Shown one piece after another: positions 2,090-53,399 of a stretch of DNA of 64,000 nucleotides. The DNA is from a virus (Duplodnaviria; Caudoviricetes), in IMG/VR virus record IMGVR_UViG_3300031519_000018, positions 7,511 through 71,510 of that record. One strand, 5' to 3'. The notes under the pieces were generated by a model, which was given only the letters and a program-made list of their open reading frames with translations, did not search any database and had not been told where the DNA came from. Each line of letters starts with the position of its first letter. Position 1 is the stretch's first letter. A program made the translations under genes and the position numbers.

Positions 2090-3319
2090 TTATTTAAATG
2101 TAAAGTTTACGCCAAATGTAGTTTGAAATAATTCACTATCCCACATTTTACTATATTCTCCCTCAGCGAATATGCCTAGGTTTTTGTTTAGTTTCCAACC
2201 GATGCTTAAACCAGCAGAATAGTCTTCCCATTGTTCTGGCTCTGCATCTTGCCTTAAACCACCAAGGCCCCAATTATTTCTATTTAAATAAGAAACTTCA
2301 GTGTCACCCTGTATGTATTTGTGATTAGGTAATATATAATTAGCATAAGCATGAAGCCAAAACTTACCTTTGTTGTGATAGTAGTCAGCTCCAACAATAG
2401 GTGCTATTTCTCCAAAAGCATCTAATAAATCCCATTGCTCTCCATTGTATCTATTCATTAACTGTGTAAAAACATTTTCTCTAAACTCAAGATCTGTATA
2501 AGCTACTATCTCTCCGTTTTCATTTTTCCATATCCAATCAGTAGTTTGCTCTCCAGTATTAGCGTCTGTGTATGTTGTGTAGTGATCTGTGTAACCATAT
2601 TCAAAACCTAAGGTATACCAAGTGTTTAAAGGAAAATCAAAAGTATTACCATTACCATCATCAAAAGTTTGCGTTTCATTTAACCATATCTCTATTGGGT
2701 TATACCCATAAGGTCTATCATGTGTTCTATATATAGCTCCAGCTGATATACTAAACTTATCACCTATAGGTAATCTAGCTCTTAATTCTGCTGATTGATA
2801 TTTTAAATTTATTTTAGCAACTTCCCTTGATTCAATTTTAGCTATATGGTATTTGCCTGTGTGTTTAAAAAATATGTTATGGTTTTGAAATAATTCTCCT
2901 CTCCATCTTTCTTTCTCAAAATGAACTTGATATTCTAAACCTGTCAAAGCAGATGTAGGTGCTCTAAATGCTAATTGTTCTTCTGTGCCATCATAAAAGT
3001 TTTTAGGTTTTCTTTCATAACTAAACCTAGCTAGTTTTCTAATACCAAAACCAAGCCTATAATCAAAAGCATAATCCGGAGTATTATCTACTACAATAGG
3101 TACATCGTATAAACTACCACCTTCTCCTGTTCTAACAAAAAACGTTTGCTCTCTTGCTTCAATAGAATTATTAACATCTCCAGCCCAATATACAGTTCCG
3201 TATTTTACAAAGTCTTCATAAAGATCTTTGAAAAAACTAGTCTTACCTAAAGCTTCTGGAGTTTGAGAGTTAACAACCACTGTTAACAAAGTGAATAAAG
3301 TAATTAAAAGGTTTTTCAT
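2090..3319 (-). CDS. Predicted outer-membrane beta-barrel protein
   Basis: Sec signal peptide (MKNLLITLFTLLTVVVNS-Q), aromatic alternating beta strands, C-terminal FQTTFGVNFTFK beta-signal. Confidence 0.65.
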   Translation of the reverse strand: MKNLLITLFTLLTVVVNSQTPEALGKTSFFKDLYEDFVKYGTVYWAGDVNNSIEAREQTFFVRTGEGGSLYDVPIVVDNTPDYAFDYRLGFGIRKLARFSYERKPKNFYDGTEEQLAFRAPTSALTGLEYQVHFEKERWRGELFQNHNIFFKHTGKYHIAKIESREVAKINLKYQSAELRARLPIGDKFSISAGAIYRTHDRPYGYNPIEIWLNETQTFDDGNGNTFDFPLNTWYTLGFEYGYTDHYTTYTDANTGEQTTDWIWKNENGEIVAYTDLEFRENVFTQLMNRYNGEQWDLLDAFGEIAPIVGADYYHNKGKFWLHAYANYILPNHKYIQGDTEVSYLNRNNWGLGGLRQDAEPEQWEDYSAGLSIGWKLNKNLGIFAEGEYSKMWDSELFQTTFGVNFTFK

Positions 3320-6300
3320 TGTTTTTTCTTTTTGTTATATTCTTCTATTAATTTTCTATTTCTTTGTAAAATTGTAGACCTAGTTATAGAGTCTTTTATT
3401 CTCTTGTTTTCTTTTCTAGTTGCAGCACCTTTTTTAGCAGCGTCAGATCTTTTCTTTTTTTCTTCAGCTTCTAACTTAGCTCTTTCCAAAGGATCCATCT
3501 CAGCTAGTACTCTAGCTTTTTCTATTTTTTTAAGATCTCTAGTTTCTTTTGCTTTTATTTTACCTTGCTCTTTTCTTTTAGCTTTAGCATCTGTTTTGAT
3601 CTGCTCATGTGTTTCGTTTGGTTCTGCACCTAAGTCCCAAGTGTTCCAACCAAAAGCAAAGAAAGCTCTTTTCCATATAGCGTTTCTTTCATCAAGAGCT
3701 GCTTTTATGTTGTTAAATTTTTTAACTAGTCTATCTAAAGGCACGTTTGTACCACCACTCACTAGATTACCTATTACGGACCAAGATGGGCTATCTAACG
3801 CTAAACCTCTTTCTTTTATAACATCTTTTTCAAACCTGTAGGTTTGTATTGCGTTATATACTTTTCTAAGCTTAGAACCTAACGGTGGTGATAAGTTAAC
3901 TAATTCTAGTATAGTGTAAGTGTGATCAGCTGTAAATCCTTTCTTTTCTTGTTTTCTAAATTGTCTTATAGCATTTTTAAGCGTTGCTCCTACAGCACCA
4001 TAAAGTCCACTACCTCTAAGAATACTGTCTGCCATACTATTACCAATATCTACTTTCCACTCTTTATTTTGACACGCCTCAAGTTTCTTACCTTCTAAAC
4101 CTTCACATCGTTCTTCTTCATCTTCAAACAACATGCTAAATAAAGCTTTCTGCATAGCGGAGAATATAAAGTTTTGTATTGCTCCATAGTAAGCTATTTT
4201 AGAAACATTAGTTTTCCAGTCTCCTCTACCGTTTATTAAATCTCTAGCCGCCTTTTTTATAAGCCTATTGTACTGCATAGGTGTATTTTGGAAAGCCAAA
4301 ACAAATCTACCTAAAGGACCAGCTTGTTGTGCTGATATTAAAGAAGGATCAGATGACTGCTGTGTTTCTTCAGCTAACATAGAAAAATCTTCCCAAGCTT
4401 TGTCTTCAGCTTGTTTTTGATCCATGCCTTGTTTCATGTATGTTTTTATTCTGTTCCTGTACATTGTTGCACCACCAGAAGCAATTGCAAAACTATCTGC
4501 TATTTGAGTTGGAGTAAAACCTATTTTTAATAAGTACTGAAACGCAGCTTGTGCTTTGTTTTTACTACCAGCCATTGCGTTTGCCAGTTCAGCTTCGTTT
4601 ACATCTGTTTTTAATCCTTTACGTCTTTGTTTTAGTTTATCAGAATTAAATATAGTTGCAAAGTCTTTCCAGTATTGAGGTTGGTTTGCAAACGCTAACG
4701 CGGCTTTAGCAGGATTGTTGTCTGTCCAGTTTATAAAGTTTACAGTAGACAAAGTTTGTAGTAAAGCAGATCTCATGTTAAAAAACATTATAGCTCCTAC
4801 AGAATTGTTTAACCAATTACTCCACTTGTTTACTAATTTATTTTTACCAAATGTCCTGTTAGTACCGTTTTCCATTCTATAAAGTATGTCTTCTAAAGAC
4901 TCTCTAAAGTTTTTACCGTACGCTGCTTCTATTTTGTTTAAATTTTCTTCGCTAAATATTTCTTTTGAGTTTTCTATAAATTCTTTTATAAACTCTTTTC
5001 TACCTATTTTTTCAGTTATGTTGTTTAAGTCACTAGCAATACTACCTGTTAGCCAGTATTCACCGGGTGAAGTGTAACCTTGTTTTTGGTTTGATATTAA
5101 TCCAACACTGTCAGCAAACAACTTAAGTCTCTGATCTCCATTAACTATACTAAGCAGTTCGTTTAAATCTGTTTTAGATAGTCCAGGTATTTTATGACCA
5201 GCTTTAGTATACAAATAAGCCCTAACAGCTTGATCATAAGTGTAGCCTATGTTTGGTATTTGTTTTCCTAATTTCTTTTTAACATCTTTAAACTCTGACC
5301 TTAAAGCATTGTAAGACGTTTGAATAGCTTGTTTAGCTCTTTCAATGTTAGCAACACCTCTTGAATAAGGTTTCATTAAATTGTCTTCTATCCACTTTTT
5401 ATCCGCATCACCTTTTTTTCCTTTACCTAAAAAGTCATACATCATACCCATAAAATCTTCTGCTGATGGCGGTAAAAAATATCTAAATCTACCTTTGTTT
5501 CTACCTACCATTTCGCCTTTAGACTTAGAAAAAGTTTTAACAGCATTAATACCTGTCCTAGCTTCTAACATTTCGTTAAACTCTTGACTACGGCTTTTGT
5601 TTGATTTTACAATAGCAAGTTGAACATCTCCTTTTACGTCTAAAACGCTAAGAGCGTCTTTAACAGCTTTTACGTTTTTAATAGCATCATCAGCAAAATA
5701 GAAATCATTATAACCATCAGCTGCTTTACCTATTATCCAGTCAGCTTTTGCTTGAGCATTACCGTCAGCTAAACCTGTTATGTTTTCTATTTTAATATCT
5801 AAACCTATTTCTTTTAAAAACTTTTGAATAGCCACATCAGAAGCTTGAGGTCTAGCAGTTAGAACAAATATATCACCAGTCCCAAACTTGCCTTGACGCT
5901 TTAAAGCAAGATCAGCCAACGGTCCTTTTTTACCATCTATAACTTGACTAAATTCGCTAAAATCAAACTTAGCGCCTTTTGACTCTAAGTCAGTAGATTG
6001 AGCAGCGAACTGTGTAGCGTCTATTTTTCCAGTAGTGCCATCAAGCAGCGTGTATAGCACGTTAGACTTGGTCTGAGCCAAAGTATCATCAAAATCAAAA
6101 ACAGAAATACCCTTAGTGTCTTTGTTTGGATCAAGCGCAGCGTTTAAGGCATCAGCCCTATTTTGATTATTTATGTAATTTTCTACATTTGTCTTGCTTA
6201 TGATTTTATTTATAAAATCTATAGATAGGTTTTGCCTTTTTATATACTCTATAGCCTGTAGGCCTTCTGATGTCAAGAAAGTGTTATAAGAATCTGGATC

Positions 6301-9300
6301 AACCGTTAGACCTCTAAAGTCACCTAGTTTAGAAGTAGTACCTAATGCGTCATCTTGAATAGCTGAAAACAACTCTGCGCCAAGCGTTTGATTGTAGCTA
6401 GAGAGTATTTTATCCATTTCTAGCTCAGCAAAAGTATTTATAGCGTGTAGTTGTTTAGGTTTATTAGCTAAACCCATTCTGTGTATTGTAGCTGCTGTTT
6501 TTAAAGCTACTTTAGCTAAGTCCAACATAACGTTAGCAGCAGGGTCTACGTGCTCTCCTTTAAACTTTAAGTGTTTCTCTGGTGGGTGTTTTTCTAATCT
6601 TTGGTTTATAAACTCATCTAAAGTATTTTCTCTCTTAAACTTAGCTGTTTGCTTTTCATACATCTTAGTAGATCTATCTATAGCAAACTCTCTAGCTTGA
6701 GCGTAAAATATATGATTTTCATCAGCCTCCATAGAACCATCTACATATTGTATTAACGGTAATCTAGTTAAACCTCTTTGAGCTTTTACATTACTTGTTG
6801 ATGATTCTAACCATCTCATAAAACCAGGAGCTAATGAAGGGTTCTTGGCTATAAGCTCAGTAGCTTTGTTCATTATATATTTTAAAGCTTCTATGTTTGC
6901 TACTTCAGCTTTAGCTATAATGTCACCAAATTTATCTTCAATCTCAGCTTGTTTTTCTGCTGCTGTTTTATTTTTCTTTAATATAGTAGTTATCTGCTTC
7001 ATTACACCACTAGCAGAGTTGAATATTCTTATATCAGAAGGGTTAAAAGATAGTTGTGTATCAGAATCTTGATCTCCTTTTGCTTTTCTTTTTTTAGCTA
7101 GATCATAATACTTTCCTGGTTTTCCATCAGCCTTCTTCTTAGCGCCATCTAAATAACTATATGTTATACTAAACATGTCATCACCTACAGCGTCCACTAA
7201 CTCTGGAGGTAATATGTCTATTAAAGCACTTGAGAACTTAGCTAACTGCTCCATTGAAGCCTCTTGATTTTTGTTAGTTATAGATTTTTTATAAGTTTCA
7301 ACTGCAGGGCCAAATAACACAGGCATGTCTTTCCACTCTATCAAAGGTTTTTTAAATCCAGTTTTACCTTCATCAAAATAAGTACCTAAACCAATTTCAT
7401 CAGCATAAGCTTGTATGTCATTAGGTTGCTCTGACTTGTACATTAAATAAGCATCTGAACTACCACCATTTACTATAGCTTGATCCATCATGTTTAATAA
7501 AGCCTCTTGAACAACTGCTGCTGATTTGTTTGACTTAGAATTACCTCTTTCTATATCTCTACCTATATCTAATATATCTATAGATGCTGAGGCAACGTTT
7601 ACTATTTCTTGGTTTTTGTTTAACTCACTAAAAACCTCGTTGTCATTAGCTATCATTTCTAAACCAGTCTCTTCTGCCATAGCTTTAGCTAAAGATTCTT
7701 TTCTACCTCTTGTTAAAGATTTCAATGAAAGATTACCATCTGGACCAACAACCTCACCAAAGTAAGATAAAAACTGTTTGTCTGATATATTAATGTTTCT
7801 TTTAACCATCTCTAAACCAGATGTTCTACCTGTTTCAGCGCTAGACTCAAAATCAATCTTTCTACCTTGCCACTCAGTTGTCCACTTACCATCTACTTTC
7901 TTTTGAACAGCTATAGGTATTGCAGTGCCCAACCAAGTGGTAGTCATATTTTCTAATATAGTTTTTTTGTTCTTTAATAAGTAGTTAGAAAACTTGTTGT
8001 TTTTTAAACCACCCATTAACTCTTTAAATACTATATCATTTTGATTACCTATTTCTTTTTTAAACTCTCTAACCCAAGGCGCTATTGTAACGTTTTTAGA
8101 AGTTTGTTTAAATACAGAGGTTTTTAAAACTCTAACAACTTTTATTACAGTTTCTTTTAGTTTCTTTACAGCAAAACTAGGTACAGCGTTTGTTTTTATT
8201 ATGTTAGTATACTTACCTTTTTTAATAGTAGGTGATTTACCACTTTTTTCACTAAATCCATCAACTTCTTTACCTAAGTTATAGCTTTCAACTATACCTT
8301 GTATCTTATTATCTAGTTGACCATTTATCCACCTGTTAAGCTCTATAGATCCACTGTATCTTTCTACAATACCAACAATACCTTGAACTTTTACTTCTCT
8401 TCCGCTTTTACCCGTCTTAGTCGTTCCATATGTTATGTCAGCCAATATACTTTCCTCAACAGCTTTAAAGCCAGGTATTTTACTAAACTTTCTTAGTCTT
8501 CTTTTTACTTCATTAGTGTACTCGTAACCCACGAGTTGACCTAGTCTAGTTTTTTGAGATTCAGACATATCACTCATGTGATCAATTCTTTGATCTTCAC
8601 TCATAGATTCATCTAGACCCATTATCATTTCAGTAGTGCTATATAAATCTTTAGAACTCTTAGTGTTTTCACTAGTTCCAGTTGGCCCAAACAATCTACC
8701 TATTTTATCTGTAAGAGATATAGGATCATATTTGTTATGGTTTTTTACTATGTCAAGTATTTTAGCTTGAAAACCTCTAACTTCACCAACTAACGCTTTG
8801 TTACCATAAAGACTTTTATTGCTTCCAAATATTGCTTGTTTAATGTAAGGCGTGTAAAAGTTTACAATAGCGCTACCATAGCCTTTAGCTTTTGTATTAA
8901 AAGTTTGGTTAACGTTTCTTTCCAAAGCTGTTTGAGCGCCTAGACCATTAACTAAACTACCTTTAGCACCTTTTTTAGCTACGTTTAATATAGACCCTCT
9001 AATGCCTTTGCCACTAGCCATAGATTTATTATAATCTTTTAAGAAATTATAAACATCTTGACCGGTGTTAAACTCTATGCCTTTTATACCTAAGTTTTGA
9101 AAGGTTTGTCTTAACGTGTCTTTTAGTTTAGTAAATAAGTTTTCTTCAAAACCTATAAAACCTTGAGCCATACCGTCTGAAAAGAAAGTAAGTAATTCCT
9201 CTGCTTGAACATCTGCTGAGTTGTTCTTGTAAGCTTGTAGCTTTGCAGATAAGTAGGAACTAGGGTCGTAACCTCTAGCTATCATGTTATCAACTTGATC

Positions 9301-12300
9301 CTTTAGAACTCCAGCCATAGCTTGAGCTGCTTTAGGATTTTTCATTAAAGTCTCGTTTAAAACAGCATGTAGTATCTCGTGTTGAGCAACTGTAGTTTCG
9401 CTGTTTTTTTCTGATTTTGTTTTGTTTATTATTATCTCTTGCGTACCATCTTTGTATTGAACTACAAAACCATTGTCACCTACTCTTTTTACGCTAACTT
9501 CTTTATCTTGTTCATCTTCTTTTTTACCTTTATTTCTAGTAGGCAAGGCAGCGTTTATTTCAGCTATTCTATCTTTAACTTTTTGATCAGCTGTTTTAGC
9601 GTTTTCTACAGTTAAGTCTTCATCGTCTTCATAAGTATTCGTGTCAATACCTAGCTTTTTAGCTGTTTTCTCAGATGCTTCAGTTGTTTTTCTTGATATC
9701 TCATCTTTGTTTTGAGCCACTTGACCTGAGGTAATCTCACCGTCAATTTGAGAGATTCTTTCGTTAATACCCTGTAAGTCCCCAGTAAATGTATACTCAG
9801 CACCGTCTGCCCCTGTCATCTCTATTGTAGCAGTAGAACTATCACCCATGCCTTTCTTAGCATCAAGTAATTTTTGTTTTTCTATGTATAAGTTTATTTC
9901 AGCGTCGGTAACAAACTCACCGCCTAAAGTTATAGCATTTTTTATATCATTACCATGTTGAAGCGCTTTATCCGCAGCATCCATATCTTGCTTAGCTCTA
10001 TTCATAAGCTCTGTTTTACCAGCAGCTTTAGCTCTATTGTATATGTTTTCTGAATATTCTTTATTTGCTTTTAAGCTCTCCATAACGCCATTGACGTTGG
10101 CTCTCATTTCCGTGTATACTTGTTTTTGTATATTAGCATAACCGCCACCTACAGTAGAAGTAGCAACAGAGGTTGATCCAGATAATATAATAGTACCCAT
10201 TACTGTTTCAAACTGAGTTTGAAGATCTAAAAAACCAGTTTCATTTGATAAGCCTACAGTAAGCTTAGCCATGTCTGTAAGAAGTAGTTCCATTTCTTCT
10301 TCACCAATTTCTCCAATAAGATTGTTAGCAAATTGTTTACTTACTTCTTTTATAGCTTTTGCGTTAGCTGCTTTAGATAAATTACCTTTAAACGCTTCTA
10401 ATAAGCCTTTACCAGCTTTAGTGTTAAAGAAGTTAGCGTCGGGCATTATACCTTGAACTACAGATGTAGCGAAAGAAGCCATATTACTATATGCTAAAGC
10501 CTGACCTTCGGTAAGACCCATGTCTATAGCTTCGTTATAGTTGTCTCTTATAGTTCCCATGTAAGCGACTTGACCCATTCTAAGAGTGTTCATGCCTATG
10601 CCACCTAAGTTTTTCTTGCCACCTTCTAAAAGCACTTTTCCACCAACCTTTAGCTTTGGCACTGTAACACCAATGTTACCCCACTGAAGTCCATCTTTTT
10701 TTTTGCCAAACATTTTGTAAACATCTTTAAGTTTACGAACATCCCCTTTTTTAACAGACGCAGCTAAAGCCAACGTGAACGGTAACATGTTACCTAATGT
10801 TTTAAAAGAAGACCTAACGTTTACACCATCTTCCCATAAAGAACCTCCAATATCAGAAGTTCCAAAAGCGTTATTTTTTAAGAAGCTACTGTCGACCAAG
10901 TCGTCTACGTAGTTTAATCTATCGTAAGAAGCTTGTGTATCTACTCCAAGCTTTGTTACGCCGTAAAGTATAAGCCTGTTAGCCATTGAAGCAGTACCAT
11001 AAAGATATTCAGTACCAAAATCTCTTAATCCTTGGCCTATTGTTGCTACAAAATCTCCTGAGCTAGCTAAAAACTCTCCGTCTTGTATTTTTTTATCTCT
11101 CCACTCTTTGAACTCAGTAGTCATTTCAAAGTTATCGCTCATGAAAGCTTTTTTAGATAAATCAAAATCATATTGAGCAGCTAAATTATAATACTTATTC
11201 TGTATAGCTTCTGCTTCTATGTTGTATTCGTCAATTTGAGCTTGTGTCACCTCTTCTACAGAATCAACCGACGCGAATAAATTGTTTTGCAATAGCTCCA
11301 TATCAAAAGAAGCTCTTTTACCTGCTTCAGATAAAACAGACATTTTAGCATTGTTAATAAGCATCTCTTTTTGCTCAACACCCATAGTCTCGCTAACAGC
11401 TTCGTCTGTGACAGATCCTATTAGTCGTAGCTTTGTTCTTCTATTTTCTTCACCATGAACTTGATTTAGAATTTCGTTTTTTACTTCTTTTGTAAGCTCT
11501 ATATCTTCTTTACCGTCTAACTCAGAAGTAATTGAAAAACCAGCGCTATTAGCTTCGCCAGTATTTGTTGTTGAAATCTTTTGTAGTATCAAGTTAGACT
11601 CTTCGTATGCTTTTCTAGCGTACAGCGGTAGTAGTTCTACAATATCTGCTTTCTCATCGTCGTAACCTTGCTTACGCAAGTTATAAAATTCTTCGTCAAT
11701 AGGGTTTTCACTATTAGGATCATAATAACGCTTGTCTAATTCGTTTATTTTATCGTCAACTTCTTTAATCCTTGCTGTTACATCATTATAAGAATTAGTC
11801 TCGTATTTATCGTCATTCTCTATAAGGTCTTCGTTTTGCTGAACTGCGTACTCATGTCCAATACGTTTTATTTCATTTTCTAAATAGCTTTTTTTTGTAA
11901 CCATAAATACTCCAGATGATCCATTTGGGTCTTCTAAGTTTTCTAGTTTGTTCTTTAAAAAAGCTACGTAAGGATCTCCAAAAAAAACAGGATCACCTGG
12001 GTTGTTTTTGAATTCGTCTTCAAGTTCAAGTTGGTAAGCAGGTGGATCAATAGCATCCGTTCTACTTCCTGGAAAGCTATCCGTGAAGTTATCACCATTT
12101 TGGTTTTTATTGTAAACTTCGAAGTCTTTACCTTCTATCAATAACAAGTCCGAAGAAGAAGGATTTCCAAATCCACCCGATTCTTCTTGGTTCTCTGAGG
12201 CTTGATTGTTTTCCGACCCCGCATTCGCCTCCGCATTTGCAGGATCTGATTGGTTTCCCGCTACTACTCTAGCTCCGAAACTTTTTTCCCATGAACTAAG

Positions 12301-12378
12301 GTCTAAACCCATACTAGAAGCAGCGGCGTTAGCCTCTTCATCTGTGTATTTTTTGTCACCTACTATATAATCTGGCAT
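3316..12378 (-). CDS. Giant (3020 aa) multidomain internal virion / DNA-ejection-type protein with zincin HExxH and HAD phosphatase domains
   Basis: Position downstream of tail genes; AQHEILHAVL...EELL; VFDFDDTL / LTARP / FADD HAD motifs. Confidence 0.7.
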   Translation of the reverse strand: MPDYIVGDKKYTDEEANAAASSMGLDLSSWEKSFGARVVAGNQSDPANAEANAGSENNQASENQEESGGFGNPSSSDLLLIEGKDFEVYNKNQNGDNFTDSFPGSRTDAIDPPAYQLELEDEFKNNPGDPVFFGDPYVAFLKNKLENLEDPNGSSGVFMVTKKSYLENEIKRIGHEYAVQQNEDLIENDDKYETNSYNDVTARIKEVDDKINELDKRYYDPNSENPIDEEFYNLRKQGYDDEKADIVELLPLYARKAYEESNLILQKISTTNTGEANSAGFSITSELDGKEDIELTKEVKNEILNQVHGEENRRTKLRLIGSVTDEAVSETMGVEQKEMLINNAKMSVLSEAGKRASFDMELLQNNLFASVDSVEEVTQAQIDEYNIEAEAIQNKYYNLAAQYDFDLSKKAFMSDNFEMTTEFKEWRDKKIQDGEFLASSGDFVATIGQGLRDFGTEYLYGTASMANRLILYGVTKLGVDTQASYDRLNYVDDLVDSSFLKNNAFGTSDIGGSLWEDGVNVRSSFKTLGNMLPFTLALAASVKKGDVRKLKDVYKMFGKKKDGLQWGNIGVTVPKLKVGGKVLLEGGKKNLGGIGMNTLRMGQVAYMGTIRDNYNEAIDMGLTEGQALAYSNMASFATSVVQGIMPDANFFNTKAGKGLLEAFKGNLSKAANAKAIKEVSKQFANNLIGEIGEEEMELLLTDMAKLTVGLSNETGFLDLQTQFETVMGTIILSGSTSVATSTVGGGYANIQKQVYTEMRANVNGVMESLKANKEYSENIYNRAKAAGKTELMNRAKQDMDAADKALQHGNDIKNAITLGGEFVTDAEINLYIEKQKLLDAKKGMGDSSTATIEMTGADGAEYTFTGDLQGINERISQIDGEITSGQVAQNKDEISRKTTEASEKTAKKLGIDTNTYEDDEDLTVENAKTADQKVKDRIAEINAALPTRNKGKKEDEQDKEVSVKRVGDNGFVVQYKDGTQEIIINKTKSEKNSETTVAQHEILHAVLNETLMKNPKAAQAMAGVLKDQVDNMIARGYDPSSYLSAKLQAYKNNSADVQAEELLTFFSDGMAQGFIGFEENLFTKLKDTLRQTFQNLGIKGIEFNTGQDVYNFLKDYNKSMASGKGIRGSILNVAKKGAKGSLVNGLGAQTALERNVNQTFNTKAKGYGSAIVNFYTPYIKQAIFGSNKSLYGNKALVGEVRGFQAKILDIVKNHNKYDPISLTDKIGRLFGPTGTSENTKSSKDLYSTTEMIMGLDESMSEDQRIDHMSDMSESQKTRLGQLVGYEYTNEVKRRLRKFSKIPGFKAVEESILADITYGTTKTGKSGREVKVQGIVGIVERYSGSIELNRWINGQLDNKIQGIVESYNLGKEVDGFSEKSGKSPTIKKGKYTNIIKTNAVPSFAVKKLKETVIKVVRVLKTSVFKQTSKNVTIAPWVREFKKEIGNQNDIVFKELMGGLKNNKFSNYLLKNKKTILENMTTTWLGTAIPIAVQKKVDGKWTTEWQGRKIDFESSAETGRTSGLEMVKRNINISDKQFLSYFGEVVGPDGNLSLKSLTRGRKESLAKAMAEETGLEMIANDNEVFSELNKNQEIVNVASASIDILDIGRDIERGNSKSNKSAAVVQEALLNMMDQAIVNGGSSDAYLMYKSEQPNDIQAYADEIGLGTYFDEGKTGFKKPLIEWKDMPVLFGPAVETYKKSITNKNQEASMEQLAKFSSALIDILPPELVDAVGDDMFSITYSYLDGAKKKADGKPGKYYDLAKKRKAKGDQDSDTQLSFNPSDIRIFNSASGVMKQITTILKKNKTAAEKQAEIEDKFGDIIAKAEVANIEALKYIMNKATELIAKNPSLAPGFMRWLESSTSNVKAQRGLTRLPLIQYVDGSMEADENHIFYAQAREFAIDRSTKMYEKQTAKFKRENTLDEFINQRLEKHPPEKHLKFKGEHVDPAANVMLDLAKVALKTAATIHRMGLANKPKQLHAINTFAELEMDKILSSYNQTLGAELFSAIQDDALGTTSKLGDFRGLTVDPDSYNTFLTSEGLQAIEYIKRQNLSIDFINKIISKTNVENYINNQNRADALNAALDPNKDTKGISVFDFDDTLAQTKSNVLYTLLDGTTGKIDATQFAAQSTDLESKGAKFDFSEFSQVIDGKKGPLADLALKRQGKFGTGDIFVLTARPQASDVAIQKFLKEIGLDIKIENITGLADGNAQAKADWIIGKAADGYNDFYFADDAIKNVKAVKDALSVLDVKGDVQLAIVKSNKSRSQEFNEMLEARTGINAVKTFSKSKGEMVGRNKGRFRYFLPPSAEDFMGMMYDFLGKGKKGDADKKWIEDNLMKPYSRGVANIERAKQAIQTSYNALRSEFKDVKKKLGKQIPNIGYTYDQAVRAYLYTKAGHKIPGLSKTDLNELLSIVNGDQRLKLFADSVGLISNQKQGYTSPGEYWLTGSIASDLNNITEKIGRKEFIKEFIENSKEIFSEENLNKIEAAYGKNFRESLEDILYRMENGTNRTFGKNKLVNKWSNWLNNSVGAIMFFNMRSALLQTLSTVNFINWTDNNPAKAALAFANQPQYWKDFATIFNSDKLKQRRKGLKTDVNEAELANAMAGSKNKAQAAFQYLLKIGFTPTQIADSFAIASGGATMYRNRIKTYMKQGMDQKQAEDKAWEDFSMLAEETQQSSDPSLISAQQAGPLGRFVLAFQNTPMQYNRLIKKAARDLINGRGDWKTNVSKIAYYGAIQNFIFSAMQKALFSMLFEDEEERCEGLEGKKLEACQNKEWKVDIGNSMADSILRGSGLYGAVGATLKNAIRQFRKQEKKGFTADHTYTILELVNLSPPLGSKLRKVYNAIQTYRFEKDVIKERGLALDSPSWSVIGNLVSGGTNVPLDRLVKKFNNIKAALDERNAIWKRAFFAFGWNTWDLGAEPNETHEQIKTDAKAKRKEQGKIKAKETRDLKKIEKARVLAEMDPLERAKLEAEEKKKRSDAAKKGAATRKENKRIKDSITRSTILQRNRKLIEEYNKKKKQ

Positions 12379-26717: not shown

Positions 26718-27866
26718 TTATTTATTTTTTTTGAAACCCCACTTAAAAGATGAACCATCTGCATCAACGGCTCTGTAAGTAGTACCTGATTTAGGTGCTT
26801 CTCCTTGAGCTTTTCTAGGATCCATACTAATGTTTTTTGTTTGAGAAATACTCTGTCTCATAGCATCAGACTTTCCTTGTTCGTAGAAATGGTTTGCAAT
26901 TGCATCGGGATTCATTGCGGTGAATAAAGATTTGTGATAACCAGCGGCGTCGCTCATCTCATTGTTTTTGTCAAGAAACTTCTTAACAAAATTATTGATG
27001 TTGCCCTGTGCATCTTTAACTTCATTCGGGTTTTTAACATTAAACCTATACCTTTTGTCTCCGACTTTATATTCAAAACCTTTGAATTCGTCATTAAAAA
27101 CTTGGTTAGTTTTATTGTTGAAAGTTTGAGTTTGCTTTTCAGCAACCTCTTGATTTTTATTATATCTATTAAAAAAATCTACAGCTTTTTTTTGCTCAGG
27201 CGCTAACCTAGAGCCAGCTTTGATTTCTTCATAATATTTATCTTTTAAGCTATTAAGATGATTTTTAGCATATGCTAACTCTTCTTTTCTAGCTAATTTT
27301 TTTCTTTTAATATCTCTTTCATCTTCCATGTCTTCTTCAATAGCAAATTTATCTTCTATTAAAAAGTTTATTTCCGATGGATCTAAATGAGGTCTTGTGT
27401 TTTGATAGTACTCAACTAGTAATTGCTCTTCATTTAAAGCGTCTACGTCTTGATTAAGTTTGACGTAATCTTCTAAACTTCCACCAGTCTCATCCATAAA
27501 GTCTACAACTTTTTGAATGTTTTCTGGTAAAGGTTTTCCAGTTTCTTGAGCTTCAACAACTGCTTCAGCAATTTCTTCAGCTTTTTCTATAACCTCTTCT
27601 TCTGTTATCTCTTCAAGAACAGTTAGCTCTTCAGGCAAAACTTCTTCTTCAACAACAGCTACAGGTTCTTCAACCTTTACTTCTTTTTTAACTTCTTCAG
27701 CAACTTTGCCTTTTTCTGGCTTAGTTACTAATTTGTCAAAATCTATTTTATGTGTACCATCTTCTTTGACAGTAACTTCAGGTACTAGATCACCTTTTTC
27801 AGTCTCTTGGGCCTGCGGAGTTATTTCTTCCACTACCTCTTCGACTATTTTTTCTTCTTTAGCCAT
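26718..27866 (-). CDS. Scaffolding protein
   Basis: Very acidic helical protein between portal and MCP. Confidence 0.7.
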   Translation of the reverse strand: MAKEEKIVEEVVEEITPQAQETEKGDLVPEVTVKEDGTHKIDFDKLVTKPEKGKVAEEVKKEVKVEEPVAVVEEEVLPEELTVLEEITEEEVIEKAEEIAEAVVEAQETGKPLPENIQKVVDFMDETGGSLEDYVKLNQDVDALNEEQLLVEYYQNTRPHLDPSEINFLIEDKFAIEEDMEDERDIKRKKLARKEELAYAKNHLNSLKDKYYEEIKAGSRLAPEQKKAVDFFNRYNKNQEVAEKQTQTFNNKTNQVFNDEFKGFEYKVGDKRYRFNVKNPNEVKDAQGNINNFVKKFLDKNNEMSDAAGYHKSLFTAMNPDAIANHFYEQGKSDAMRQSISQTKNISMDPRKAQGEAPKSGTTYRAVDADGSSFKWGFKKNK

Positions 27867-27895
27867 AATAAAATATTATAAAATTATAAAATTAA

Positions 27896-44845: not shown

Positions 44846-45099
44846 TCGACTAAAACAACGTCCCCTAAGTTAATAACTGTGTATACTTTCTCTTTGTAAG
44901 AAATACCGTGACCTGCGTGTTTGTCGTAGAATATGACATCATCTTTTACAACACCCTGTACCTTGTCACCAACTGTTATTACTTTAGCTTTTTTGTATCT
45001 AACTTCTGTATCTGTTCTTTCTGCGATAATAAGACCACCAACCTCTCTTGGTTCTTCTTTTATCTTTTCTATTACTATATAGTAGTTTATTGCTTTCAT
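44842..45099 (-). CDS. groES: Co-chaperonin GroES (start re-called at MKAINYY)
   Basis: GGLII, KAKVITVG, VVKDDVIFYDKHAG, YTVINLGDVVLV; overlaps groEL stop. Confidence 0.8.
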   Translation of the reverse strand: MKAINYYIVIEKIKEEPREVGGLIIAERTDTEVRYKKAKVITVGDKVQGVVKDDVIFYDKHAGHGISYKEKVYTVINLGDVVLVE

Positions 45100-46667
45100 T
45101 ATTCTCTTACGTTTGATATTACACAATCCGCAGACATAATAGTTTTAGCAACACTCACTGCATATTTAAGTGCTGACTTAGTTACAAGAAGAGGATCAAC
45201 AATACCTTCTGTTACCATATGCTTAGTACAACCACATGTAACATCTATACCTTCTCCTTCTTCCCAACCTGATGCCCAAGCAACTCTCTCCATCATATTA
45301 GCATTTTCTAATACTTTTTCAAAAGGAGCTTGTATTGCGCTTAGTAATATTAACTCTCCAGCTCCACCGTGGTTTTCAACCATACTTGCAGCGTTTAATA
45401 AAGCAATACCACCGCCTGGTACAATACCTTCCTCGATAGCAGCTTTAGTAGCATACAAAGCATCTTCCACTCTATCCATTTTTTCCTTGCGCTCTACTTG
45501 AGAGTAAGCACCTACTTTGATTATACCAACTAAACCTGACAACATAGCTAGTCTTTTTTGATGAAGACCTTTCCAATACTTATCTTTAGTTTCTTTGATT
45601 TTCTTTTCTACAGTTTTAATCCTATCTTTTAATAGTTTAGGATCTTTGTCTACAGTAAGTATTGTAGATCTTTTATCTGTAACAGCTTTCTTAGCTCTAC
45701 CTAAAACATCTGGACTAATCATGTCCATATCATCTCCAAGCTCTTCACTTATGACCTTAGCACCTGTTAATAGCGCTATATCTTCTAGTGTATCTCTTTT
45801 AGATGGCCCAAATCCTGGTAGATCTATAATATTAACCTTTATATTGCCTTTAACCTTGTTCATTAACAAAGTAGCAAACGGTTGTTGTTCTAATTCAGCT
45901 ATAATAAGCAGTGATTTGCCACCTTTTATTATATATTCCAATATTGTCTGTATTTTGCGTACATTTTCCACAGGAGAATCTACGATTAACACGTATGGCT
46001 CTTCTAATACCGACTTATGGTTGTCTTTATCTGTTAATAGATGAGGAGATTTTATTTTACAGCCGTGAAGCTCAACCCCATCAACAATTTCGATGTGTGT
46101 TTGCTCATCTTCCGAGCCTTCCATCAAAACTACGCCGTTTTTACCTACTTTTTCGTAAGCCTCAGCGATTAAGTTACCTAGTGTTTCGTCGTTATTACAA
46201 GAAATCTTAGCTACATGCTTAATTAGCTTGTCGTCTGCGGGAATTTTTATTTTTTCTAGGTACTCTAGTACTTTTTCTAAAGAATAATCTATACCTTTTT
46301 TAATATTTCTTAAACTTTCCCAACCATCATACTCATGATAGTTAGTTAAAATAGAATGAGCAAGGACGGTAGCTGTTGTAGTGCCGTCACCTGCTTCTTC
46401 TACTGTTTTGGAGGCAGCTTCTTTAACCAAAGTTGCACCAATGTTCTCGACCGGGTCCATTAAGACTACGCTTTCCGCAACGGTTACACCATCTTTTGTT
46501 ATCACCGGTCGACCCATGGTATCTTCATAGATCACACATTTTCCAGATGCACCAAGAGTTGAGCCTACGGCTCTTGCTAACTTGTCTACACCCTTCATTA
46601 TTTTGGATTTAGCCTTCTTATTGAAAGTTAACTCCTTTACTATATCACTAGCATTGTTATAATTCAT
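45099..46667 (-). CDS. groEL: Chaperonin GroEL
   Basis: [33 protein letters not shown] motifs. Confidence 0.95.
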
Positions 46668-48899: not shown

Positions 48900-49017
48900 G
48901 GAGTGAATGGGTCGGTAGTAAATCGTAACGTACTTAATATAGATGGAAAACTCTATAACGTTAGTAGATAAATCGTGTACGTGTATGACAAAGGTTCAAT
49001 TCCTTTCCACTCCACTA
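48900..49017 (+). ncRNA. tmRNA/tRNA-like RNA, 115 nt (acceptor stem + T-arm + P2-like helix)
   Basis: GGAGTG/CACTCC-A acceptor, GAC-AAAGG-TTCAATT-CCTTT T-arm, ACGTAC/GTACGT helix. Confidence 0.55.
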
Positions 49018-50998: not shown

Positions 50999-51187
50999 AT
51001 GTATTGTAGATGTGGAAGTAATGTGCACGAAGTGCGAATCAAATTAGGTTATAAAACCTGTATGCCTTGTAGTACAACACAGACATATTCTTATGTGCCT
51101 ATTATCGAGCACAAAACAGGTAATACAATACAAATCGTCAGTCAAGAAGTAAGTGCATCAGTGCATAGAGCTTGGCGGCGTAAATAA
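50999..51187 (+). CDS. Small C4 zinc-finger protein
   Basis: CRC...CMPC. Confidence 0.6.
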   Translation: MYCRCGSNVHEVRIKLGYKTCMPCSTTQTYSYVPIIEHKTGNTIQIVSQEVSASVHRAWRRK

Positions 51188-51405
51188 GTCCTAACAAACC
51201 AGCAAGACCAAAAAAGACTCTTGCAAAGGATTAGGCAGGTAGCTAGACGAGTAGCTTAATTAGATGAGTTTGAAGCTAACCATGAAAAATAGGTTAGATG
51301 ATGGATTCTCATACATAAGTGAATTGCTAGTAGCTAGATGACGAGGCAGGAGGGCAATCGCGACGATAAATTCTGCGGTTGTTTTCAGAGGCCGATTCTA
51401 GCGGC

Positions 51406-51474
51406 AACTAGGTATGGGTGCTCCGACCGGGCGTGCTACTGACGAGTATGAGGGTTCGATTCCCTCGCTAGTTA
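51406..51474 (+). ncRNA. Degenerate tRNA-like element
   Basis: AACTAG/CTAGTT acceptor-like stem; GAGGG-TTCGATT-CCCTC T-arm; non-canonical D and anticodon arms. Confidence 0.4.
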
Positions 51475-51542
51475 CAAATGTGCAGCGAATAAATAACGAC
51501 GAGCCTTAACCAACAGGATCAAGCGAGCATGACTGCACACAC

Positions 51543-51623
51543 GGGGGTGACTTGGTATTGACGTGATAGAAAGCCTATATGGAACTATTGCGGAAGAGAG
51601 TTCGAATCTCTCCACCTCCACTA
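51543..51623 (+). ncRNA. Minimal tmRNA: tRNA-like domain only, no tag ORF or pseudoknots
   Basis: GGGGGTG/CACCTCC-A with G3-U70; unpaired D-loop ACTTGGTATTGA; 8-bp P2a; GAA; GAGAG-TTCGAAT-CTCTC. Confidence 0.8.
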
Positions 51624-53308: not shown

Positions 53309-53380
53309 TGCGCGGTAGAGCAGCGGTAGCTCGTTGGGTTCATATCCCAAAGGTCGGAGGTTCGAACCCTCCCTGCGCAC
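53309..53380 (+). tRNA. tRNA-Met(CAT), initiator-type
   Basis: Full cloverleaf; anticodon loop TTCATAT; GGG/CCC at end of anticodon stem and A11-U24 as in fMet tRNAs; CCA not encoded. Confidence 0.9.
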
Positions 53381-53399
53381 CTAAATTAAATAATAAATT

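Follow-up and report, generated by a model that had tools for sequence, protein, structure and literature searches.

Does an 81-nt segment of a phage genome encode a tmRNA that has lost its message, and if so, what might such an RNA do? Nearly all bacteria have trans-translation, which is pursued as a target for antibiotics. The locus lies at positions 51543-51623 of the window, by which we mean the whole 64,000-nt stretch analysed here (positions 7,511 to 71,510 of IMG/VR record IMGVR_UViG_3300031519_000018). The genome itself is complete, 71,510 bp long, with direct terminal repeats. The original prediction read the locus as a tmRNA cut down to its tRNA-like domain (TLD), with no tag open reading frame. 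All of the TLD elements that it had placed here are present in the sequence, as follows in window positions.

51543-51623, + strand: mini-tmRNA gene, 81 nt with CUA, 78 nt up to the discriminator
51543-51549, + strand: acceptor 5' strand GGGGGUG (sequence, RF00023 alignment and fold); G3 of G3.U70 is 51545
51550-51561, + strand: D-loop analogue ACUUGGUAUUGA, 12 nt, unpaired, with a GG doublet, no D stem and the 3' end UUGA
51562-51592, + strand: P2a hairpin, an 8-bp helix around a 15-nt interior (fold and family layout)
51562-51569 and 51585-51592, + strand: P2a strands, CGUGAUAG pairing with CUAUUGCG, two G.U among the eight pairs
51570-51584, + strand: P2a interior, 15 nt, an A-rich internal loop and a tiny CC/GG stem
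51593-51595, + strand: connector GAA, joining P2a to the T arm (RF00023 alignment)
51596-51612, + strand: T arm GAGAG-UUCGAAU-CUCUC, a perfect stem (RF00023 alignment and fold)
51613-51619, + strand: acceptor 3' strand CACCUCC; U70 is 51617
51620-51623, + strand: discriminator A51620, then CUA at the CCA position (sequence and RF00023 alignment)

In a search of Rfam, the tmRNA family RF00023 matched 51543-51623 at 63.9 bits (E-value 1.3e-22; gathering cut-off, 47 bits), spanning model positions 1-374. All TLD positions were aligned with high posterior probability, and the D-loop analogue ACUUGGUAUUGA aligned with the TLD consensus GAucuGGaUUCGA. The minimum-energy fold of the RNA is exactly the TLD structure, with a z of -2.5 against shuffles. 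Every part of the tRNA-like domain of a tmRNA was found, namely the 7-bp acceptor, G3.U70, A73, the T arm, a D-loop without a stem, and P2a.

The mRNA-like domain is absent: there is no resume codon, tag frame or stop, just 15 nt inside P2a. The pseudoknot ring PK1-PK4 is absent as well, and 304 internal positions of RF00023 are reduced to 11 nt in the alignment, which agrees with the earlier claim that a 15-nt loop has replaced the pseudoknots and tag frame. The P2a hairpin stands where a full tmRNA has these parts. Read by eye, frames from the GCC at 51573 are open through the 3' end without a stop, and no frame with the ...ALAA-stop ending typical of Bacteroidota tags occurs in the 64-kb window. 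The interior was also considered as a copy of the region 5' of the resume codon; this was rejected, as A-richness is all that the two have in common.

Other identities for the RNA were weighed against this one. An ordinary tRNA-Ala (RF00005) does not fit, since the RNA lacks a D stem, an anticodon arm and U8, and has GA at positions 7-8. A comparison of tmRNA and tRNA covariance models had been proposed along with the prediction, and RF00023 is the best model within clan CL00001, ahead of tRNA; the central hairpin, an 8-bp stem with a 15-nt interior, likewise argues against a tRNA. ARAGORN with default settings calls neither a tRNA nor a tmRNA at 51543-51623, and its sole call in the window is a tRNA-Met at 53309-53381. 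A permuted, two-piece tmRNA (RF04321) is rejected because here the 5' half comes first, followed by the hairpin and then the 3' half; the best match to RF04321 in the whole genome scored 10.6 bits against a cut-off of 47. One further tmRNA-like candidate in the window was dropped. A second TLD-like element of 118 nt at 48900-49017 on the + strand has an acceptor GGAGUG/CACUCC with A3-U70, a T arm AAAGG-UUCAAUU-CCUUU and an A-CUA tail. As a gene it was rejected on a score of 11.4 bits with RF00023 and a fold z of -0.97, no improvement on shuffled sequences, and two IMG/VR scans returned no homologues of it.

IMG/VR was scanned with a pattern in which GGGG..GA, GAC, the T-loop core and CUCCA were fixed and up to 50 nt were allowed between the halves, and at least 120 contigs with the compact layout were recovered. 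All seven acceptor pairs form in 112 of the 120 matches listed, with positions 5 and 6 and their partners left free by the pattern, against about 14% expected by chance. The pattern itself set G1-G4, G7, A8 and U70, and that these are invariant in the family is thus no independent evidence. Among the family matches listed, the pair at acceptor position 5 is G-C in 46, A-U in 30 and C-G in 19, and the pair at position 6 is U-A in 71 and C-G in 28; across 106 homologues both positions covary with their partners. The five pairs of the T stem are 99-100% paired in the family, with up to six pair types per position. For P2a, pairs were counted in a register anchored on the conserved flanks alone, independent of any fold. 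Pairs 1 to 7 are formed in 92, 93, 96, 85, 80, 79 and 72% of members, with four to six pair types at positions 2-7, whereas sliding the register by one or two columns gave only about 30-45% paired. The usual layout in the family is an 11-13-nt D-loop, a 6-9-bp P2a, an A-rich internal loop, an inner hairpin of 2-4 bp, a 3-nt connector, the T arm and A73. The D-loop ends in UCGA in 46 members and in UUGA in 18, and the connector is GAC in 56 and GAA in 10. CCA is encoded in just 29 of 106 members. Every subset of the family put through Rfam scored above the tmRNA cut-off, while ARAGORN calls only 8 of 112 family loci.

Because the acceptor, T stem and P2a covary strongly, we conclude from this comparison that the mini-tmRNA gene is under selection as an RNA, and is neither a tRNA nor an attP scar nor a match by chance. 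The homologue search for covariation in P1 and P2a that had been suggested thus turned out positive for all three helices in more than 100 homologues and, together with the 63.9 bits on RF00023, upholds the description of a tmRNA cut down to its TLD. That the locus is non-functional, be it a decaying fragment of tRNA-Ala or ssrA, a match by chance or an attP scar left by integration into host ssrA, is hardly credible. The silence of ARAGORN on the mini-tmRNA would fit such a reading, as would the ssrA fragments known to be carried by phages that integrate into ssrA (PMC9004378). However, an attP fragment needs the 3' part of ssrA only, whereas here the 5' acceptor strand, the D-loop and the 5' strand of P2a are present as well and pair with the 3' half, with which the 5' half covaries. 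The genome encodes no tyrosine integrase (PF00589) and has direct terminal repeats, and both the stem covariation across more than 100 contigs and the Rfam E-value of 1e-22 speak against decay or chance. A better fit to an ordinary tRNA or an attP scar of host ssrA had been named as grounds for abandoning the prediction; neither holds, given that RF00023 wins and the 5' half covaries.

The mini-tmRNA is usually a solitary gene outside tRNA arrays. A tRNA gene was found in the examined flanks of 14 of 112 loci, and within 100 nt in six. When the flanking ORFs of 113 loci were clustered, no protein neighbour was common to the whole family, and the neighbours found were specific to clades (TerL, portal, prohead protease). 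The largest neighbour cluster covers 17 loci, all from one clade in which the gene lies between the terminase and portal genes. The lack of a family-wide protein neighbour suggests that the partners come from the host. Matches to the pattern in cellular genomes are for the most part 3' portions of full-length tmRNAs. A few are true minis, in genomes that also have a normal tmRNA; of two examined, one neighbours portal and terminase genes and the other a reverse transcriptase. The latter is an 86-nt mini-tmRNA in a Poribacteria metagenome-assembled genome (L326:7959-8044; G002:C139), which also has a normal tmRNA; its reverse transcriptase gene (phrog_1423) lies about 1.4 kb away with one ORF between. 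In the literature searched, no description of the breadth of this family in phages was found.

What kind of phage carries this gene? The portal protein is closest (45-54% identity) to that of an uncultured Manatee Spring podovirus, followed by Flavobacterium phage elemo and then by Cellulophaga, Tenacibaculum and Maribacter phages. The best explanation is a lytic-type podophage with marine hosts of the Flavobacteriaceae type. The structural genes lie on the - strand, and the mini-tmRNA sits in a block of small ORFs on the + strand that runs into the DNA ligase and primase/helicase genes. Since this block leads into replication-type genes such as these, a fair reading is that the mini-tmRNA would be made early or in the middle of infection by a phage of the Flavobacteriaceae type. 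Flavobacterium phage elemoF and the Manatee Spring podovirus, the closest cultured relatives of this phage, are without the gene, which marks it as accessory. No SmpB is encoded in the whole 71,510-bp genome, so the absence noted earlier for the window extends to all of it. Elsewhere in the genome, a full-length GroEL-like chaperonin of 522 aa (45099-46667, - strand; phrog_5725) shares about 40% identity with GroEL from Flavobacterium and Bacteroides phages, and a 3020-aa ORF in the structural block (3316-12378, - strand) has no PHROG match.

An RNA of this kind has a precedent in phages. Hudson, Lau and Williams (2014) listed the tmRNA of Mycobacterium phage DS6A as "TLD only" (PMC4131195; tmRNA Website ID 11587). 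The belief that no such phage system had been described was therefore mistaken, though DS6A is the one example of a phage TLD-only tmRNA in the literature searched. The same paper, citing Mao et al. 2009, reports strong inhibition of tmRNA in E. coli by a similar molecule, in chargeable and unchargeable form alike, and names titration of SmpB as a possible cause (PMC4131195); the test in E. coli was heterologous. Nawrocki, Petrov and Williams (2025), likewise citing Mao et al. 2009, repeat the "TLD only" description and the statement on inhibition, and their paper adds plastid genes without a coding sequence (PMC11915505). In ordinary tmRNA, the TLD acts together with SmpB as a mimic of tRNA-Ala that AlaRS charges and EF-Tu binds, and a TLD fragment with SmpB and EF-Tu docks on non-stop ribosomes (PDB 4V8Q; PMC8012679). 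The mini-tmRNA retains the TLD parts for SmpB, AlaRS and EF-Tu, and no part of the message.

From these parallels, the reading that we favour, with moderate confidence, is that the mini-tmRNA acts as a decoy that would bind host SmpB, compete with host tmRNA and suppress tagging. Host tRNA-processing enzymes would cut it from a longer, strongly expressed transcript, presumably with RNase P cleaving at G1, a 3' endonuclease cleaving after A73 and the host CCA-adding enzyme supplying CCA. Addition of CCA after 3' trimming is suggested because most family members and most of the sampled Bacteroidota ssrA genes encode no CCA. The D-loop, connector and elbow are predicted to bind host SmpB, while the acceptor-T minihelix with G3.U70 and A73 is probably a substrate for alanylation by host AlaRS and a ligand of EF-Tu, to judge from tmRNA TLD fragments. 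With no resume codon, frame or stop, the mini-tmRNA could not support template switching. On balance it would vie with host tmRNA for SmpB, and perhaps for stalled ribosomes also, such that ssrA tagging and normal trans-translation would be suppressed during infection, as the E. coli precedent suggests (PMC4131195, PMC11915505). This dependence on host factors is proposed because there is no SmpB in the genome and no protein neighbour across the family. Host-like processing also counts for the decoy, as Bacteroidota ssrA genes are likewise mostly without CCA, some of them with UUGAC. Conversely, the GAA in place of GAC could lower the affinity for SmpB, if that C matters for binding.

The main rival of the decoy reading gives the RNA an active part on the ribosome, which we consider possible, at well below an even chance. 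The original prediction had put forward both of these functions, of which the first, sequestration of SmpB, has the published precedent. Here the alanylated mini-tmRNA, with host SmpB and EF-Tu, would enter stalled ribosomes and take over the nascent chain, which would gain one alanine and no degron and then be released through drop-off with peptidyl-tRNA hydrolase or by an ArfB-like factor. The gain to the phage would be that ribosomes are freed and truncated phage proteins are not marked for proteolysis. Such a role would account for the elements for charging and delivery (the G3.U70/A73 minihelix, T arm and D-loop GG), all of which are kept and covary. It also agrees with the docking of TLD fragments with SmpB and EF-Tu on non-stop ribosomes (PMC8012679), and with the CDS-less tmRNAs that persist together with SmpB in some mitochondria and plastids and suggest that a form without a message is useful (PMC11915505). 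However, the published inhibition is reported to be independent of charging (PMC4131195). Without a stop codon there is no known efficient route of release, and a ribosome holding peptidyl-mini-tmRNA may be trapped; nor is a release factor or hydrolase linked to the gene in any clade.

The mini-tmRNA gene is the last element of a 455-nt island without ORFs; as a 473-nt DNA query, the island has no match in the phage collection. The island and the part of the early unit upstream of it contain the following.

50999-51432, + strand: upstream part of the early unit, a small Cys-rich ORF and a structured leader
50999-51187, + strand: Cys-rich ORF (CxC...CxxC), 62 aa
51406-51477, + strand: non-canonical tRNA-like RNA, here called X, with a 6-bp acceptor AACUAG/CUAGUU and a discriminator A followed by CAA
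within 51406-51477, + strand: T arm of X, a 6-bp stem UGAGGG/CCCUCG with the loop UUCGAUU
51479-51542, + strand: linker, with the hairpin base UGUGCAG (51479-51485) / CUGCACA (51533-51539), a variable loop, and CAC directly before G1

Contigs assembled from metatranscriptomes cover 51005-51432 in three runs from at least two studies. In one of these (run X16) contig depth over 51005-51432 is 320-1164, compared with 8-24 on the neighbouring ORFs; as assembled contigs, they do not fix the ends, strand or level of the RNA. Because this depth is far above that of the neighbours, the island is probably transcribed strongly, in keeping with the decoy reading, and 50999-51432 looks like an abundant early transcript that runs into it. 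In four metatranscriptome runs no contig lies on 51543-51623, which, given contigs and filters, counts neither way. Gene order, together with the RNA-library contigs over the upstream part of the island, makes it plausible that the mini-tmRNA is an early RNA; the 81-nt RNA itself appears in no RNA data.

A scan for the 3' part of X matched nine contigs which, with L120 and the window, makes 11 that have the X frame. The frame is constant in all 11, whereas the interior between GGUAUGG and CUACUGACGAGUA is replaced wholesale. Base changes in X preserve pairing: in the T stem U.G is replaced by U-A, and in the acceptor A-U by G.U. No Rfam family fits X, and ARAGORN calls it at relaxed thresholds only, and inconsistently. 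What follows X on its 3' side varies. It is the mini-tmRNA in the window and in L086, L120, L309 and L311, and ORFs only in L312-L314. In L307 (8841-9100), L308 and L310 it is a longer TLD-like RNA of about 90-110 nt with the acceptor GGGCGUG/CACGUCC. This longer RNA keeps G3.U70 and has a C-G pair at 4-69, a different interior, and a score below the Rfam tmRNA cut-off. The linker is probably a processing or leader element. Two blocks of it, AAUGUGCAGCGAAUAAAUA and AUGACUGCACACAC, are the same in the window, L086, L120 and L309 and enclose a stretch that varies; the linker motif occurs once in the window. The linker also contains GCA GCG AAU AAA UAA, which would read A-A-N-K-stop. As a hidden tag frame this was rejected, since its length and ending vary among relatives and the linker frames are unlike Bacteroidota tags (G/A-x-N-x-x-YALAA).

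The cassette raises two further readings. In the first, the mini-tmRNA would be a decoy for a target other than SmpB, or would function jointly with X in a modular RNA cassette. The target could be an anti-phage nuclease or sensor of tmRNA- or tRNA-like RNAs, or the RNA could serve as a sink for AlaRS, EF-Tu or tRNA-processing enzymes. The gene does lie in a cassette of structured RNAs, with modules swapped between relatives of the window's clade and X occurring alone, with the mini-tmRNA or with the longer G3.U70 TLD-like RNA, and defence systems with SmpB-like domains have been predicted (PMC10542128). We nevertheless judge it quite improbable: no direct evidence indicates a target of this kind, what is conserved across the family is exactly the tmRNA TLD signature and not a generic tRNA shape, and in most family members the gene has neither X nor tRNA genes beside it. 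In the second, rather unlikely in our estimate, the mini-tmRNA would be a module of a processed early RNA operon and an active, alanylated player on stalled ribosomes, not an SmpB sponge. The operon would comprise the Cys-rich ORF, the leader, the X frame, the hairpin linker and an alanine-type TLD frame, with interiors exchanged among relatives. If true, tag-free rescue or deliberate ribosome capture would amount to an alternative to trans-translation run by the phage.

Returning to the decoy reading, a little-studied kind of RNA probably interferes with the host's tagging of stalled proteins. If so, a natural phage RNA of 80 nt directed against trans-translation would be widespread, which would signify that phages routinely manipulate ribosome rescue, and the mini-tmRNA would represent a minimal natural ligand of SmpB. 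The DS6A architecture is found in at least 120 viral contigs from many environments, mostly overlooked by ARAGORN, and in very different genomic contexts, from the early RNA island described here to the interval between terminase and portal genes in another clade. Thanks to this breadth, the question of why phages would block or hijack tmRNA can be put to the test with more than one host. What the analysis contributes is the extent of the family, the lack of a protein partner and the modular cassette of RNAs in which the gene lies; the window gene itself adds a member to a known, barely studied kind and no new principle.

That kind is defined by DS6A. The window RNA has a complete TLD and a short P2 hairpin in place of the message, and it is encoded by a phage, which are the marks of a TLD-only phage tmRNA. 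Both RNAs are about 81-83 nt long and phage-encoded, with a G3.U70 acceptor, an unpaired D-loop, a 3-nt connector, a T arm and an A-CUA tail. In both, the P2a hairpin contains an A-rich internal loop and a small hairpin inside it, and there is no tag frame or pseudoknot. In DS6A the D-loop is 13 nt long and the inner hairpin is CCGCACGCGG. DS6A differs in its connector (CAC rather than GAA) and at positions 7-8 (GC, where the mini-tmRNA has the consensus GA). The hosts also differ, Actinomycetota for DS6A and probably Bacteroidota for the window phage, and the multi-RNA island is a further difference from DS6A. The DS6A RNA (JN698994.1, 28478-28560) scores 43.2 bits on RF00023, below the cut-off, compared with 63.9 bits, above it, for the mini-tmRNA. 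By sequence and predicted structure, the mini-tmRNA is of the DS6A kind, and of the two it is the better fit to the tmRNA TLD.

With one-piece ssrA (RF00023), the mini-tmRNA shares the acceptor, the D-loop analogue, the base of P2a, the connector, the T arm and the AlaRS identity elements. It lacks the resume codon, tag frame, stop and pseudoknots, about 300 nt having given way to a 15-nt interior, and its connector is GAA where that of one-piece tmRNA is GAC. In Bacteroidota tmRNAs the connector was GAC in 25 of 25 tallied rows and in a further 19 of 19 read by eye. Most sampled Bacteroidota ssrA genes have no encoded CCA, and the UUGAC D-loop variant also occurs in some Bacteroidota tmRNAs. 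The mini-tmRNA is thus host-like, yet not a copy of the host TLD, because it shares the lack of CCA and the UUGAC with ssrA but not the GAC connector of Bacteroidota. The GAA connector is a peculiarity of the clade of the window phage.

Permuted tmRNAs (RF04321) are also carried by phages, for example Maribacter phage Panino (PP540027.1) and OM43 phage Melnitz (PMC9004378). Panino infects a related host group, and the 3' TLD half of its tmRNA resembles the mini-tmRNA; a DNA search of the phage collection with the 81-nt query returned only short T-arm matches and this permuted tmRNA. The Panino RNA (L123:2487-2695; PP540027.1, 27590-27798) scores 62.2 bits on RF04321 and lies inside an array of 15 tRNA genes, and the GenBank "tmRNA" feature at 27557-27889 overlaps tRNA-Asp and tRNA-Thr and looks mis-bounded. 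The RF04321 phage tmRNAs still have a coding piece that holds a tag frame, in circularly permuted order, whereas the mini-tmRNA is neither coding nor permuted. Closer in content are the organellar tmRNAs without a message, from jakobid and oomycete mitochondria and from Mallomonadaceae plastids, where the genes are about 65 bp (PMC11915505). Like the mini-tmRNA, they have a TLD and no tag CDS, and each presumably works with an SmpB encoded elsewhere. However, the organellar RNAs descend vertically alongside a resident SmpB, whereas the mini-tmRNA is a viral accessory gene that would act on the system of its host.
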